Source of the DNA: a virus | DNA length: 64,000 nt | Reading direction: 5' to 3' (one strand) | Virus record (IMG/VR): IMGVR_UViG_3300010413_000010 | Coordinates: 34,635 to 98,634 of that record | Shown: positions 16,089-56,557 of the stretch, piece by piece | Numbering within the stretch: the stretch's first letter is position 1 | Layout of the letters: each line of letters starts with the position of its first letter | The notes under the pieces: model-generated | What the model saw: only the letters and a program-made list of their open reading frames with translations | What the model was told of the DNA's origin: nothing | The model's database searches: none | Translations under genes and position numbers: made by a program

Positions 16089-16328
16089 TTATAATTCGTC
16101 GCAGTAGATCGGAGTTCGTTCCCCGTAGTAGGCTCCGGCGATGTTGTAGTCGAAGTAGTCAATCGCGTTATCAATCCCCATGTCTTTCTCAAGCTGGGAG
16201 ATTATTCTGTTGGAGGAGTAGATGAGCCTTTCATTTTGTATATCAACACCAATGATGGCATCGTCGCGCCCAGTAAGAAAAACGAAAGGAATTCCAGGGT
16301 AACGGTCTTTTACATCTTGGATTGTCAT
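16089..16328 (-). CDS. Conserved phage hypothetical protein
   Basis: DDAIIG...AIDYFDYNIAGAY.GERTP motif. Confidence 0.65.
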   Translation of the reverse strand: MTIQDVKDRYPGIPFVFLTGRDDAIIGVDIQNERLIYSSNRIISQLEKDMGIDNAIDYFDYNIAGAYYGERTPIYCDEL

Positions 16329-17488
16329 TAGGTTACCTCACACCCCCCGCCACCACAGGCAGCTTCGGCTTGGAGACTGGTTGTATCTGCATCTTCAATC
16401 ACTTGGGTGAGATCAATCTGTTTAAGAACCTCGACGCGTTTTTCGAACTCTTCCTTAGAAATATCTTCAAAAGGAGCCTGAGTGTATGTCCCGCCATCAT
16501 AAGGAAGAACAGAAATAGCAGTGAAGTCTTCCCGGTTATCCCACATCCACTCCGCTACTTCAGCCCACTCGTCAGGCCGAACACTGATTGTGCAGGAGAC
16601 GTTATTCCGGTTGTCACCTTCTACATGACCGGGCTTCACCCACTCCACGTTGAAACGCCGTACCCGGCGTAAGGTGCCCAAAGCGGTCTCAGTTCTCAGA
16701 ACGGCATGATCAGGAGCCTTCTGAGGTACAGTGATGACGGCCATAGTCTCCGGCCGAAACTTCTCATCCTCGACGAGCTCAGGGTGGAGGAGAGATAAGT
16801 AGCTGTAGATAGCTTCGTTCTTCCCGACCCGGATACGTCTGAGATAGTAATCATTGTGCCAAGCATGGACCCCGGAGGAGGTTCCACATACCAACGAAGC
16901 AGTTCCTTCGGGCTTGATCGCTGTAGTTCTGGCAGCAGGATTGATGCCAATAGCATGAGCAGTAAGGGTGTTCATATCCTTTACTTCTTTTGCAACCGTA
17001 GCCAGGTCAAGGTTGTCTACCCGGCCGGAGGCGATGCCAGTCATGGATACGCCGATGAGGGCTTCCTCTTCTGTTGTCTCCTTCCACTTGGCTCCAAGAT
17101 AATGGAAGTCAGTGTAGGATGCTTGAAGGGTCGCAATGAAGGATGCAGCCCGAGCTCGTTTATTGAGATCGTCCTGATCCTCAACATCGGAAGCATTGAT
17201 GGTTACGAGATTGCAAAATTGATGGCTACGGAGAGAAATTTCCCCGCACGGATTAAGCCCCCAGTCCGTGTTGTCAGTGAACATCACACCAGGCTCTCCA
17301 GCACCAGAGGCTTTCACACGATCCCAGACTTTAAGGAATTCTTCCTGGGTGATCTTATTTCTCTCCATCACAACGGTGTTGTTAGCTCGTCCACGGTGGG
17401 AGTGGAGTTCCCACCAGTTGCCGGACTTACAGGTCAACATCTCGTAATCGTCGAGAGAGAAGAGGGAGATCATTGCTGCTCTACGAAT
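16328..17488 (-). CDS. nrdJ: Class II ribonucleotide reductase, exon 2
   Basis: IRRAAMISLFS, GLNPCGEI, FCNL, KPEGT and C-terminal ACGGGGCEV; no beta-subunit gene in the window. Confidence 0.9.
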   Translation of the reverse strand: MRRAAMISLFSLDDYEMLTCKSGNWWELHSHRGRANNTVVMERNKITQEEFLKVWDRVKASGAGEPGVMFTDNTDWGLNPCGEISLRSHQFCNLVTINASDVEDQDDLNKRARAASFIATLQASYTDFHYLGAKWKETTEEEALIGVSMTGIASGRVDNLDLATVAKEVKDMNTLTAHAIGINPAARTTAIKPEGTASLVCGTSSGVHAWHNDYYLRRIRVGKNEAIYSYLSLLHPELVEDEKFRPETMAVITVPQKAPDHAVLRTETALGTLRRVRRFNVEWVKPGHVEGDNRNNVSCTISVRPDEWAEVAEWMWDNREDFTAISVLPYDGGTYTQAPFEDISKEEFEKRVEVLKQIDLTQVIEDADTTSLQAEAACGGGGCEVT

Positions 17489-18442
17489 CGTTTACCCCTA
17501 CGTTTCCATAGGGAACGGACTATCTCTTAACTCTTCTGAGCCTCGGATTTCTTGGAGAGGTTATTGTGTCGTCTACTCACTCTCTAGTCTCTGAACCTTC
17601 CTGTTACTTTTATGACGTTCACAGGAGTGGTAACGGATTGCCATATCGTTAGACTTAGGTTTCCCGTTTTAACCCGATTAGGTGGCCTTCGTAGTTTAGG
17701 CAGCAGGTTGGAGAGCGGCTTTGTATTCGTTCAGAAACATCGACGCTTTCCTTTGTTTTCTATGATTGAATAATACAGAAGGCTCGGCATAGAGCCATTC
17801 GACAAACGCAGCAACCCGCGCCATGTTACCAAACTTCAAGTCGTAACAGGCTTCATCCCTACGAGGGCGCACGGTCGTAGCAATGTTTAGCTCCTCTTCC
17901 ATAATCCTTTGTATAGAGGATAAGAACTCGAAGCTGCTGTGGGTGAATCCAATATTTGCCCAAAGCCGGTCCCGGTCTTTCCGGTGCCCATAACTTATAT
18001 GACCGTCCGCATCGAAGAACCCACGGAGATAATGCCTCATCAGGTTCCGGGGGATATTCACAATCCTTCGGTCGTTTTTCAAACCCAACACACCATACTT
18101 ATTGAAAAGAGGGGAAAATTTAGAACTAAAGGCTAGTGTTGCAGTTTTTTTCTCCGTCTTAATGTTGTACTTCTTGTTGATCGTTACTTTATAATTAACT
18201 GCTGTGTCGGGGCAGTATAAGCGCTGAAACATTTCAATAAGATATGTATCCACAGAACTCACACTGAGACGGGCTTTGCGTTTATGAGTAGGTTGATTAA
18301 AAATACCATCCCCGGCTAAGTAGCCGATGAGGTAGGCAGACTCTGGGTCGAGTTTGTCGAAAATATTCAATCTGTATTTCTTTGCATTTATAAGATACTC
18401 TTTCATTTCTGATTTTCTCCTGTATTATGTTATTTAGAGCTG
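17489..18442 (-). mobile_element. Group I intron in nrdJ
   Basis: 5' exon ends in U and the intron ends in G; R (UCAGAGACUA) and S (AAGAGAUAGUCC) elements; IGS 17681-17694 forms P1 and P10; splicing restores AVLAGG-IRRAAM. Confidence 0.93.
17696..18406 (-). CDS. Intron-encoded double-motif LAGLIDADG homing endonuclease
   Basis: LIGYLAGDG and LRGFFDADG motifs; own GGAG RBS. Confidence 0.9.
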   Translation of the reverse strand: MKEYLINAKKYRLNIFDKLDPESAYLIGYLAGDGIFNQPTHKRKARLSVSSVDTYLIEMFQRLYCPDTAVNYKVTINKKYNIKTEKKTATLAFSSKFSPLFNKYGVLGLKNDRRIVNIPRNLMRHYLRGFFDADGHISYGHRKDRDRLWANIGFTHSSFEFLSSIQRIMEEELNIATTVRPRRDEACYDLKFGNMARVAAFVEWLYAEPSVLFNHRKQRKASMFLNEYKAALQPAA

Positions 18443-34550: not shown

Positions 34551-34755
34551 GCACACCTCCGACCCGGACTCTATACTTCCGCGCTTTACAGTCAGCCTGA
34601 ATCCTCTCCCAGACCAACCATTCAGTTGTTGCACGGCGCGGAGAGATCAGGTCTTTATAGACAGCTCTCCAGCCACCGTCGTGCCAATCAAGCACCTTTG
34701 GCACCCATACGTTTCCAACTCTCTGTATCCGAAATCGCACACCTCGGTGTGACAT
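34522..34755 (-). CDS. Basic hypothetical protein
   Basis: AAGGAGG before MSHRG. Confidence 0.5.
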   Translation of the reverse strand: MSHRGVRFRIQRVGNVWVPKVLDWHDGGWRAVYKDLISPRRATTEWLVWERIQADCKARKYRVRVGGVRELTLKVSA

Positions 34756-53413: not shown

Positions 53414-53776
53414 ATGCTACTGAAATACAATCTCACCGATGATGAACGCCAGTTAGTGAACCGGCACATTGAAGAGTTCACCACAGTAATTAGATCAGAG
53501 AAACGAGCAAAGCTCCTCGATTATGTGACCATCGGCGCCGGTGTATCGGTGTTGGTGGCAGGGACTATAGTTTGGTCTCCAGCCTTTATCTGCTGGATAC
53601 CCTGCTGGATTTACTTTACTGCAAAGAACATGAAAACATTATCAGATTTTTATCGCCGCCGAAAGGTTATGGTGATACGGACTGCGCAGACCGTCTTATC
53701 TGATAATCGCCTCTACTCCGTATTCCGTGAACGGGCGGTGGAGAGAGGTATGGATGGAAAAAAGGCAACAATCTGA
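53414..53776 (+). CDS. Membrane protein
   Basis: Central hydrophobic hairpin. Confidence 0.6.
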   Translation: MLLKYNLTDDERQLVNRHIEEFTTVIRSEKRAKLLDYVTIGAGVSVLVAGTIVWSPAFICWIPCWIYFTAKNMKTLSDFYRRRKVMVIRTAQTVLSDNRLYSVFRERAVERGMDGKKATI

Positions 53777-54584
53777 AGATAAAGGACTACGATTCAACGA
53801 AGGGAAACTGAGATACGATCTCTTCCCACCCTTCGCTATGGAAGAGTTGGCGAAAGTGATGACCTACGGGTCAAATAAATACGCCGAACGCAACTGGGAA
53901 CGAGGTCAGAAGTGGACGACAGTTATTGCGTCCCTCAAGCGCCACCTGGCCGCGTTGGAGCAGGGAGAAGATTTCGATTCCGAATCAACTCTTCTTCATG
54001 CAGCACATGTTCTTGCTAACGCTGCCTTCCTCACTGAATTCTATAAAATATATCCAGAAGGTGATAACCGCCAGCATACTTTCTTTCAACAGAAGAGGGT
54101 AGGGTTGGATATAGACGACGTACTGGCCGACTTTTGTCAGGCCTATGTGGAGCGTTATCCAGACGTTCCATACCCATCATTTTGGAACTTTGATCAGCAA
54201 GGGGAAGCCCGATTCGCAGAGATCGCACAAGATCGTGAATTCTGGTTGAACGTTCCGCCCAAGATCGCCCCGGAGGACTTACCCTTCGAGCCGGTCGTTT
54301 ACATTACCAGTAGAAAACAACCTGTTAAATGGACTGAAGAGTGGCTTGCCAGGCACGGCTTTCCTTCGGTCCCGGTAGTCTCATCTCAAGGAGAGAGCAA
54401 GGCTGATTATGCCAAAGCCTTCTGTGTGGATGTTTTTGTCGATGACAATTACGAAACTTACCTTGATATGAACGCCAATGGCATCCTGACTTACCTCATG
54501 GATGCTGTCCATAACCGGAAGTACGATGTGGGGTATAGACGTCTCTATTCCCTCAAAGAGCTTCCGTTTCTTAAAGTCAAATAA
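53754..54584 (+). CDS. dATP/dGTP diphosphohydrolase domain (DUF5664-like) fused to a HAD 5'-nucleotidase
   Basis: GK.RYDL, YG..KY..RNW..G, HAAH; then GLDIDDVLADF, ITSR, FVDD. Confidence 0.8.
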   Translation: MEKRQQSEDKGLRFNEGKLRYDLFPPFAMEELAKVMTYGSNKYAERNWERGQKWTTVIASLKRHLAALEQGEDFDSESTLLHAAHVLANAAFLTEFYKIYPEGDNRQHTFFQQKRVGLDIDDVLADFCQAYVERYPDVPYPSFWNFDQQGEARFAEIAQDREFWLNVPPKIAPEDLPFEPVVYITSRKQPVKWTEEWLARHGFPSVPVVSSQGESKADYAKAFCVDVFVDDNYETYLDMNANGILTYLMDAVHNRKYDVGYRRLYSLKELPFLKVK

Positions 54585-54830: not shown

Positions 54831-54902
54831 GCCGGAGTAGTTCAACGGTAGAACGTCCGCCTTGTAAGCGGATTGTTAGGGGTTCAATTCCCTTGTCCGG
54901 CT
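54831..54902 (+). tRNA. tRNA-Thr(UGU)
   Basis: Cloverleaf; tccgc-ctTGTaa-gcgga; GGTTCAATTCC; G7-G66 mismatch; CCA not encoded. Confidence 0.85.
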
Positions 54903-54950
54903 CACTAACAGACACGTTGTGTCTGAAGACAATCTTAGCTAGGAGTTATA

Positions 54951-55799
54951 ATGAAAAAAACTCTAATTTTGATGACCATTATGGTCGTAATGTTTGTCGG
55001 GATTTCGGGGTGTACCACCGAAGTACCCGAAGCCACCTTGATTGATGGAGTGTCGAACGAGCTCGTCTACTCAGCCCTGTCTGCTGCAGAGGGCAAGGTT
55101 GCAACAAGAGAACTTAGTTCGGCAATTTCTATCGCTGAAGAGGACCTCTACGGATTCCCTTGGACTGATTCTGCCGGTACTACCGCTGTAGAATTTCTTG
55201 AAGGTGGAGCCATTCGGATGTGGGTTCCCGGTCTGGGATTCCCCGAGACTGACCCTTTTGTTCCTTGTACCTACACTATTCCCACCGAGGGTGAGTTTAC
55301 TATTACCTTCCCCGACGGTTTTGTGAATACCGGTGTGTACTTTATGATCCAGCCGGATGCTTTGGGTTTCTCGGTCTTTTATGAGAATGGTAATGACTAT
55401 CTTGTGACCGTTGGCCCCGACTTCCCTGCTGATCCTGATGACTGGGAGTACTTCTCCCGACCTTCTTATGCTGATGCCGCGTTATTTGTTAGTGCTGATC
55501 CTTGGATTGACATTGATGAGACCAGCATTGGAATGGATGACTCCATCTGGTTCTACGCTGATGGAACAGGCCAGTCCACTTTCAACCCCTGGGTCCCTGA
55601 TCCTGTACCAACGACTTGGAGTATCACCCCGGAATTTGGCTGTGAAATAGTCATCCCGGCTCTGGATAATTACACCTGGACTGGATACTTCTTCACCGTC
55701 GATCTGGTAGGCGCCGACCATCGCTTCCTGATCACTCACACCGGAAATCCTGGTGGAACCTCCGGCGATGATTATTCTATCGCCTATCAGGAAAAATAA
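54951..55799 (+). CDS. Acidic lipoprotein
   Basis: Lipobox ISGC; AGGAG RBS. Confidence 0.75.
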   Translation: MKKTLILMTIMVVMFVGISGCTTEVPEATLIDGVSNELVYSALSAAEGKVATRELSSAISIAEEDLYGFPWTDSAGTTAVEFLEGGAIRMWVPGLGFPETDPFVPCTYTIPTEGEFTITFPDGFVNTGVYFMIQPDALGFSVFYENGNDYLVTVGPDFPADPDDWEYFSRPSYADAALFVSADPWIDIDETSIGMDDSIWFYADGTGQSTFNPWVPDPVPTTWSITPEFGCEIVIPALDNYTWTGYFFTVDLVGADHRFLITHTGNPGGTSGDDYSIAYQEK

Positions 55800-55807
55800 T
55801 CAAAAAC

Positions 55808-55952
55808 AGACTGCAACACCGGACAAGGCTTAGGCTGGTAAAACCAGAAATGTCCACTATCAGGCTTGGAAAAGAGGGAGTCGAGAGACGCGAGACCTAA
55901 ATGCCAAGAGTGGTAAATCCAGGTAGGAAGCGAGTGGGTGACCATGCAGTCT
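55808..55952 (+). ncRNA. Unassigned 145-nt multibranch RNA
   Basis: Closing stem agactgca/tgcagtct; inner ggaca/tgtcc, ctgg/ccag, cttgg/ccaag and gtc-gaga-gac. Confidence 0.55.
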
Positions 55953-55955
55953 TTT

Positions 55956-55982
55956 ACCACTGTAGTTCGCTACAGTGGTTTT
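55956..55982 (+). terminator. Perfect 10-bp UUCG hairpin (terminator or processing stem)
   Basis: accactgtag-ttcg-ctacagtggt followed by short T run. Confidence 0.6.
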
Positions 55983-55985
55983 ACG

Positions 55986-56063
55986 GGGGCCGAGAAGGGT
56001 TCGATCTGGACTAAAGCCTAAAAGGACAGTCCAGGGACGGGGGTTCGATACCCCCCGGCTCCA
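55986..56063 (+). ncRNA. Mini-tmRNA (tRNA-like domain only)
   Basis: GGGGCCG/CGGCTCC-A acceptor with G3.U70, stemless D-loop ending GGTTCGA, 8-bp helix 2a, GAC linker, T arm; only 15 nt where the mRNA-like domain should be. Confidence 0.8.
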
Positions 56064-56126
56064 TACTCCTCCGGGAGCCTCTTAAAGTATGTTTCCGAGG
56101 GTGCTGCGTTGCTCACCTTCGGAGAT

Positions 56127-56198
56127 GCCGAAGTAGCTCAATTGGTAGAGACACGGATCATAGTTCCGGGAACGAGGGTTCGATCCCCTCCTTCGGCG
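56127..56198 (+). tRNA. Atypical tRNA (CAU-containing loop, off-register anticodon arm)
   Basis: Perfect acceptor and T arms, TAGCTCAATTGGTAGAG D arm, 4-bp anticodon stem with loop tcatagt. Confidence 0.6.
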
Positions 56199-56211
56199 AG
56201 AATCTTATCAC

Positions 56212-56295
56212 GCCACCATGTTGGAACTGGTAGACATCACGGTCTTAAAAACCGTGGGCCGAAAGGCCGTCCGGGTTCGATCCCCGGTGGTGGCA
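56212..56295 (+). tRNA. tRNA-Leu(UAA)
   Basis: acggt-ctTAAaa-accgt, long variable arm ggcc-gaaa-ggcc, A73. Confidence 0.9.
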
Positions 56296-56482
56296 GTTAT
56301 TTTTACCAACCGTTTAAGGCTGGTCTTTTTTCAAAGGCCGGAAAGACTTTCCAGCCTTTATTAAAATCTTCGATACTATAGAGGTTGCCGGTTCCAGGTA
56401 TACCCGAATCCGGTCGGACAAAAACCTGCAGGTTTTGTAGGTCAGTGGGAACACTGGTGTCACCCCTTTGAGGGTGGCTAAC

Positions 56483-56557
56483 GTCAGCGGTAGCTCAGAT
56501 GGTAGAGCACTCAACTGATACATGAGAGGTCAGGGGTTCGATCCCCCTCTGCTGGCA
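56483..56557 (+). tRNA. tRNA-Ile(GAU)-like with an 8-bp acceptor stem
   Basis: Canonical D and T arms; loop ctGATac; A31-A39 mismatch. Confidence 0.7.

Follow-up and report, generated by a model that had tools for sequence, protein, structure and literature searches.

Does a 78-nt stretch in the tRNA gene cluster of an uncultured phage encode a tmRNA reduced to its tRNA-like domain (TLD), and what would such an RNA do in the infected cell? Bacteria rescue their ribosomes and tag proteins mainly by trans-translation, which is also a drug target. A natural 78-nt RNA with exactly the parts used by AlaRS, EF-Tu and SmpB would be a ready probe of the first steps of this process, and the mini-tmRNA may be a phage counter-measure against this host quality-control pathway. 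We analysed the locus within a window of 64,000 nt (positions 34,635 to 98,634 of IMG/VR virus record IMGVR_UViG_3300010413_000010). An earlier note had read it as an alanyl TLD from which the mRNA-like domain is missing, kept by selection and possibly acting either as an SmpB sponge or as a tag-less rescue RNA. This interpretation was partly supported.

Results and Discussion

A tRNA-like domain of tmRNA in 78 nt

The Rfam tmRNA model (RF00023) matched 55986-56063 from end to end (model 1-374) with 52.4 bits and E = 9e-18, above its gathering score of 47. The match skipped 308 model positions, which are replaced here by 15 nt, and the description of the locus as a TLD of tmRNA without the mRNA-like domain was thereby confirmed by the model search that the earlier note had proposed. 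The parts from which that description had been built were all found in place: the acceptor with G3.U70 and A73, the stemless D-loop, the helix, the GAC linker, the T arm and the 15 nt (Table 1). The D-loop analogue without a stem (GGNUUCGA), the 7-bp acceptor and the T arm are those of the TLD in RF00023; the D-loop region of the tmRNA TLD is the part bound by SmpB (PMC3022190). P2a has eight pairs here, the first of which is a U.G wobble, and exactly 15 nt (AAAGCCTAAAAGGAC) lie between its strands. No CCA is encoded, A73 being followed by TAC, and at least two adjacent tRNA genes are likewise without an encoded CCA. The predicted fold has an MFE of -38.3 kcal/mol (z = -3.4), and none of 200 shuffles was as stable.

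A covariance model, R1, was built from 37 other members of the family described below, with the window copy left out. R1 matched the window copy over positions 1-79 with 83.6 bits (E 9e-17), every modelled pair being standard; the runner-up in the window was a tRNA with 23.8 bits.

Two other classes of RNA were considered and rejected. A canonical tRNA-Ala, which the earlier note had named as a possible refutation, is not the better fit: the tmRNA model outscored the tRNA model in the Rfam clan, P2a has no 7-nt anticodon loop, and ARAGORN, which called four tRNAs over the window, made no call at this site. A two-piece permuted tmRNA (RF04321, RF01849-51) does not fit either, as RF04321 gave 19.8 bits against a cut-off of 47 over a partial stretch, and the TLD is unpermuted.

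Homology to standard SsrA (RF00023) extends over the TLD and the base of helix 2 and takes in the AlaRS identity set and the region bound by SmpB. About 300 nt of SsrA have no counterpart here, namely PK1-PK4, the resume codon, the tag frame and the greater part of helix 2. No mRNA-like domain (resume codon, tag frame and stop) was found at the locus by RF00023, by ARAGORN or among the frames within 500 nt, and no tag-like frame or tag-like C-terminus was present within the same distance. For PK1-PK4 there is no room, the 15 nt making one 3-bp hairpin. Since the tag frame is missing, the window RNA cannot template a tag. These comparisons show the locus to be a predicted phage gene for a 78-nt RNA that is homologous to the TLD of tmRNA and from which the pseudoknots and the tag frame are absent.

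Table 1. Coordinates of the mini-tmRNA gene, its surroundings and the loci compared with it. Plain numbers are positions in the window; handles beginning with L denote other contigs or phage sequences.
Feature	Location	Strand	Basis or remark
Mini-tmRNA gene, TLD only, G1 to discriminator A73	55986-56063	+	RF00023 and family model R1
Acceptor 5' strand GGGGCCG	55986-55992	+	G3 at 55988; pairs with 56056-56062
Stemless D-loop analogue AGAAGGGTTCGA	55993-56004	+	aligned to Rfam consensus GAucuGGaUUCGA
P2a 5' strand TCTGGACT	56005-56012	+	all 8 family P2a pairs change on both sides
Inner element: bulge AAAG, stem CCT/AGG, loop AAA, bulge AC	56013-56027	+	P2a/P2b junction and P2b stub
P2a 3' strand AGTCCAGG	56028-56035	+	fold and R1 alignment
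GAC linker	56036-56038	+	aligned, with the T arm, to Rfam consensus GGACGcGGGUUCGAuUCCCgC
T arm GGGGG/TTCGATA/CCCCC	56039-56055	+	see GAC linker
Acceptor 3' strand CGGCTCC	56056-56062	+	U70 at 56060
Discriminator A73	56063	+	
Co-oriented RNA gene cluster around the mini-tmRNA	54831-56557	+	ARAGORN, Rfam
tRNA-Thr	54831-54903	+	ARAGORN/Rfam
Perfect 10-bp hairpin with TTCG loop	55956-55979	+	6 nt upstream of G1; read from sequence
tRNA	56126-56199	+	ARAGORN 'tRNA-Tyr', odd anticodon AUA; Rfam tRNA 48.9 bits
tRNA-Leu	56212-56295	+	ARAGORN/Rfam
tRNA-Ile	56483-56557	+	ARAGORN/Rfam
DS6A TLD-only tmRNA	JN698994: 28478-28560		unannotated; between gp33 and gp34
BRock-like mini-tmRNA, BRock	L229:1161-1238		
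BRock-like mini-tmRNA, pSt2308	L236:668-745		
BRock-like mini-tmRNA, GiJojo	L233:606-683		
BRock-like mini-tmRNA, LuckySocke	L234:604-681		
BRock-like mini-tmRNA, Alone3	L235:603-679		
Marine ORFan, example	L059:12444-12782	+	
Marine ORFan, example	L215:2525-2893	+	
Marine ORFan, example	L043:3805-4152	-	
Permuted tmRNA, Pseudomonas phage SM1	L007:1418-1809		NC_041877
Permuted tmRNA, Achromobacter phage JWDelta	L008:1470-1854		KF787094
Permuted tmRNA, Xanthomonas phage Rb1	L230:1135-1547		PQ569993
Permuted tmRNA, Synechococcus phage S-CAM3	L228:1180-1449		NC_031906

The inner 15 nt

The 15 nt enclosed by P2a are more than a plain loop and would fold around a CCU/AGG stem flanked by the two bulges listed in Table 1. 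A short hairpin within P2a was found in 118 of the 121 unique long-class members of the family, built from 55 distinct inner stems of which CCC/GGG, CCG/CGG, CCU/AGG and CCA/UGG are the commonest, and an A-rich bulge lies on the 5' side of this hairpin. Folding of the inner region is more stable than that of its shuffled versions (mean z = -1.9). In the Rfam consensus P2a is followed at the corresponding point by a 'GAa' bulge, and this by P2b. From this order and the inner hairpin, the mini-tmRNA can be described as a TLD to which P2a, the P2a/P2b junction and a P2b stub are attached.

The letters GCC-TAA within this element had been thought a possible relic of the end of a tag. That idea did not survive the comparison, because GCC is the 5' strand of the conserved inner stem and matches the start of P2b. 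GCC followed by a stop is found in only three members, which are related: the window copy (TAA) and those of contigs L034 (TGA) and L086 (TAG); elsewhere GAA, CCA, GCA and other triplets occur. The window, L034 and L086 share a U as third stem base and a purine-rich loop.

Genomic setting of the window copy

The virus record (IMG/VR) is 98,634 bp long, has 46% GC and is estimated to be 59% complete, the full size of this uncultured phage being about 167 kb. The mini-tmRNA gene lies among co-oriented tRNA genes (Table 1). The hairpin just upstream of G1 may serve in processing or as a weak terminator, and we regard it as context, a candidate only as part of the gene. It was not called in the terminator scan, just 3 T following it, and a simple sigma-70 and terminator scan gave no clear promoter and no signal at the mini-tmRNA gene. 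The stretch that ends in this hairpin, 55808-55985 (+), is structured and ORF-poor, with an MFE of -59 kcal/mol; it matched no Rfam family at E up to 1.

Comparison with isolate phages by megablast and blastn gave matches to tRNAs only. No relatives were found in IMG/VR through the two flanking proteins, and the 282-aa upstream protein matched only itself among 5.8 billion proteins. The family-A DNA polymerase of the phage has about 23% identity to those of the best isolates (Bacillus and Clostridium phage polymerases). By these comparisons the phage lineage is very divergent, with no close relative found, so the argument from conservation rests on the wider family. Neither SmpB, nor the CCA-adding enzyme family, nor an RF-1/ArfB domain was found in the 98.6 kb record, which at about 59% completeness is weak evidence of absence.

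A family of short tmRNAs in phages

A strict pattern, which required both TLD halves at a distance of 15-45 nt, was found in 79 contigs of IMG/VR, DS6A itself among them. The completeness of this list was checked with a sub-pattern, which returned exactly the 7 expected loci. The viral set held 57 unique sequences, 56 from IMG/VR and the window copy. The same pattern occurred in at least 120 metagenome contigs (105 unique sequences among the matches listed, with a size mode of 78-79 nt) and, in 596 Gb of bacterial and archaeal genomes, in only 5 contigs, all of them MAGs. As far as these pattern searches reach, the TLD-only RNA family is phage-specific and nearly absent from cellular genomes.

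Its members fall into size classes of 62-72 nt, in which P2a is capped directly, of 73-84 nt, which have the inner element, and a small group of 105-118 nt. The window copy, with 78 nt, is at the mode of the size distribution. Collecting phage homologues, as the earlier note had advised, thus gave the conserved short length and the strong covariation for which it had asked. By size, fold and R1 score the window RNA is a typical member of a large, conserved and mostly unannotated phage family. CCA is encoded in 28 of the 57 unique viral sequences. The 13 IMG/VR contigs of the intermediate 105-118 nt class (L095-L107) share the TLD ends of the others and enclose a branched insert of greater complexity; most of these RNAs are about 109 nt long, with a GATTAAAGCCC motif and no obvious tag frame.

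Standard annotation overlooks such genes: ARAGORN missed 77 of 80 copies, and some lie under 'hypothetical protein' calls. Two 64-nt copies of the short class, L025:2015-2078 (+) and L031:8489-8552 (-), were miscalled tRNA-Glu by ARAGORN, and the long-class copy of L072 was called 'tmRNA*'.

Only 21 of 80 copies lie within 1 kb of a tRNA gene. The recurrent neighbours are replication or early genes (DnaB, ERF, DUF932 and a GP88/DUF7227-like protein). No partner or nuclease gene is consistently linked across the loci; synteny is lineage-specific, with nothing in common with the window. In many loci protein genes flank the RNA at 0-300 nt on either side, so that a separate message piece would not fit there. 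One marine phage lineage (30 loci, 23 unique mini-tmRNAs) has an ORFan of about 115 aa that ends 0-160 nt upstream on the same strand, and a DUF7227/GP88-like gene follows 100-300 nt downstream of the mini-tmRNA. The ORFan, three examples of which are given in Table 1, had no Pfam or PHROG match; it may reflect the synteny of the lineage alone, or be a partner protein.

Selection and alanine identity

Among 42 unique long-class sequences, 98.5% of cells were paired, as against 71.5% in column shuffles. The covariation score was 0.705 compared with 0.153 for shuffled columns, was reached in none of 500 shuffles and did not exceed 0.155 in slid registers. Changes on both sides were seen at every P2a pair, at acceptor pairs 5 and 6 and at three pairs of the T stem, and at these covarying positions the search pattern had imposed no complementarity. 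Together with the full-length R1 match of the window copy and the invariant G3.U70 and A73, this bears out the earlier suggestion that the RNA is under selection and not in decay.

G3.U70 and A73 were invariant in 79 of 79 viral loci, and a relaxed search, in which C69, U70 and A73 were no longer required, returned the same 79 loci. As the pattern fixed G1, G2, G4, C71 and C72, the positions truly left free in this test of invariance were 69, 70 and 73 alone. The more stable G3-C70 pair occurred in no copy among the 79 viral loci, while pairs 5:68 and 6:67 were each formed by five or six pair types. Invariance of G3.U70 and A73 beside neighbouring pairs that vary argues that charging matters.

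DS6A, BRock-like phages and other known systems

A TLD-only tmRNA was already published for a phage: 'Mycobacterium phage DS6A (TLD only)' appears in Hudson, Lau and Williams 2014 (PMC4131195) and is repeated in the 2025 tmRNA database paper (PMC11915505), so the novelty implied in the earlier note cannot be upheld. The window RNA has the features of this DS6A type, its TLD halves being contiguous and in standard order and its 78 nt lying within about 63-84 nt. Both RNAs are phage-borne, unannotated, of similar size (80 nt in DS6A, 78 nt here) and without an encoded CCA. They share the G3.U70/A73 acceptor, the stemless D-loop analogue, P2a, the A-rich bulge, the inner hairpin and the T arm, and both match the Rfam tmRNA model end to end (43.2 bits for DS6A, 52.4 for the window copy) and R1 (72.5 and 83.6 bits). 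The sequences differ, however, in every variable helix. The DS6A copy stands alone between protein genes, whereas that of the window is inside a tRNA cluster; DS6A is a temperate mycobacteriophage, and the window phage is unrelated to it, uncultured, about 167 kb in size and of 46% GC. As judged by these matches and the shared fold, the window RNA and the DS6A TLD-only tmRNA belong to the same family. Functional data belong to the DS6A type, whereas the window copy is known from sequence.

Five cultured BRock-like Streptomyces phages carry an unannotated TLD-only RNA at one locus, downstream of tRNA-Val (Table 1). In BRock (NC_048650) the copy is 78 nt long and lies in the tRNA cluster, with 64.5 bits in Rfam and 75.2 bits with R1; those of GiJojo, LuckySocke, Alone3 and pSt2308 gave 55-74 bits with R1. 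The genome paper of BRock, for which ARAGORN was used, reported tRNAs only (PMC7453282). In GiJojo the mini-tmRNA lies under CDS 44, a 'hypothetical protein'. The group was found by synteny, independently of the strict pattern, which missed it because the acceptor starts with GGGU or GGGG and the D-loop analogue is variable (e.g. TTTTGAC). P2a shows compensatory changes within the group and pair 4:69 alternates between G-C and U-A, while G3.U70, A73 and an inner GAAAGCCGCA(C/U)GCGGA element are constant. Location in a tRNA cluster and the plan of bulge and inner hairpin are common to the BRock-like RNAs and the window RNA; the GGGU/GGGG acceptor start, the variable D-loop analogue and the hosts, which are Actinobacteria for the BRock-like phages, set them apart. 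No full-length tmRNA was found in the complete genomes of DS6A and BRock.

CDS-less tmRNAs are also known from jakobid mitochondria and from plastids of Mallomonadaceae, where they are about 65 bp (PMC11915505). Likened by description, they too are reduced to little beyond the TLD. Unlike the phage RNAs, they are organelle genes with imported SmpB, presumably serving the organelle's own rescue, and are not virus-borne beside a host tmRNA.

We found no paper describing a wider phage family of TLD-only tmRNAs in the searchable literature, where DS6A is the single phage example, and the family appears much larger and better defined than that literature records. New in comparison are the hundreds of copies, the discrete size classes, the extra conserved junction element and the invariant alanine identity. 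The single window copy would not surprise a tmRNA specialist; the breadth of the family, its invariant alanine identity and the Streptomyces carriers make function testable, and the cultured Streptomyces phages, whose hosts are not pathogens, are a tractable experimental system.

How the RNA would work

Every TLD feature used by AlaRS, EF-Tu and SmpB is conserved in the predicted RNA, and there is no message. The family probably interferes with the host rescue-and-tag system. In the reading that we favour, to which we assign a probability of roughly 0.55 on the sequence comparisons above, the RNA would be an Ala-charged, SmpB-dependent competitor of host tmRNA that prevents tagging. The mini-tmRNA would be excised from the transcript of the tRNA cluster, receive CCA from the host enzyme, be charged with alanine by AlaRS and be bound by SmpB and EF-Tu. 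It would then compete with host tmRNA both for SmpB and for stalled ribosomes at their empty A site and, with no message to switch to, uncouple ribosome entry from SsrA tagging. The net effect would be to suppress host trans-translation tagging in infection, along with the ensuing proteolysis and mRNA decay. Strong inhibition of E. coli tmRNA by a TLD molecule of the DS6A kind is reported (Mao 2009, as cited in PMC4131195 and PMC11915505); according to the same two accounts, this inhibition was obtained by heterologous over-expression, reportedly 'whether or not chargeable'. Inhibition of the latter kind fits a plain sponge, so the invariant G3.U70 is left unexplained by inhibition alone.

A tentative alternative, which we consider possible, is template-free rescue; what it would explain best is the strict conservation of G3.U70 and A73 in an RNA without a message. 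In this alternative the Ala-charged mini-tmRNA and host SmpB would take the nascent chain, which would be released untagged with one Ala or, through repeated rounds, with a short alanine tail, and phages would reclaim ribosomes after destroying host mRNA. Possible too, if somewhat doubtful, is a tag-less booster of rescue, an Ala-charged RNA that would enter stalled ribosomes with SmpB and take the peptide; release by ArfB or ArfA-RF2, drop-off followed by Pth, or a second round would return the ribosome to the phage and leave the proteins unmarked. The invariant G3.U70 and A73 argue that charging, hence ribosome entry, is required, and in vitro the peptide can be transferred to a TLD-only tmRNA (Shimizu and Ueda 2006, as cited in PMC3895274). 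Full-length tmRNAs occur in many large phages, so that boosting rescue is a plausible phage interest. In jakobid mitochondria and in some plastids the CDS-less tmRNAs are found together with SmpB, and a role in dealing with incomplete mRNAs has been suggested for them (PMC11915505). The 98.6 kb record, however, has no ArfB-type (RF-1 domain) release factor and no SmpB, productive release of a ribosome holding peptidyl-Ala-TLD is conjecture, and the published effect of the DS6A-type RNA, as given in the accounts cited above, is inhibition. A pure sponge, titrating SmpB off host tmRNA with neither charging nor ribosome entry, is in our view unlikely. The SmpB-binding part of the TLD is intact, but a sponge needs neither the G3.U70 wobble nor A73, and neither ever changes, however freely the pairs beside them vary; the constancy of G3.U70 speaks against a sponge that has no need of charging, as does the encoded CCA of about half of the family.

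Still less probable is some other use of a tmRNA or tRNA-Ala look-alike, as a decoy for defence nucleases that cut tRNA and tmRNA or as a non-ribosomal alanine donor. The window copy sits among phage tRNA genes, and phages are known to make factors by which tRNA and tmRNA are bound and cut (AcrIIIA1, PMC11662646). Yet the neighbours across the family are ordinary replication and early genes, with no consistently linked nuclease or partner, and a TLD whose SmpB/EF-Tu-facing parts are all conserved is more in keeping with trans-translation. Most improbable of all is that the RNA is what decay has left of a full-length phage ssrA, or that it is half of a split tmRNA whose message piece lies just upstream. 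In favour of this the stretch 55808-55985 could be cited, which folds stably and holds a GCC-started 7-codon frame. Its similarity to other loci, though, is a single 20-nt match (E 0.057), there is no tag-like C-terminus nearby, many loci are too tight for a second piece, and the low RF04321 score and the standard, unpermuted order of the TLD speak against a split gene. Decay is contradicted by the full-length fit to the family model with all pairs intact, by the discrete size classes and by the strong covariation. Model fit, TLD order and the absent tag frame largely refute both forms of this explanation, and an Ala-charged competitor of host tmRNA remains the reading that we prefer.

Other observations

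Unannotated full-length permuted (two-piece) tmRNA genes were seen in four cultured phages (Table 1), with 95.8-126.9 bits (best of RF04321, RF01850 and RF01851); that of S-CAM3 is partly under the 'hypothetical protein' call gp053. About 1.4 kb upstream of the mini-tmRNA, at 53727-54584 (+), the window has a dGTP_diPhyd_N and NT5C-like fusion gene. A 28%-identical homologue, L034:7033-7458 (-), was found, about 1.8 kb upstream of the look-alike mini-tmRNAs in L034, L044 and L066. The window also contains a group I intron (RF00028, 71 bits) at 17496-17782 (-), beside a ribonucleotide reductase fragment (ORF 16328-17473).
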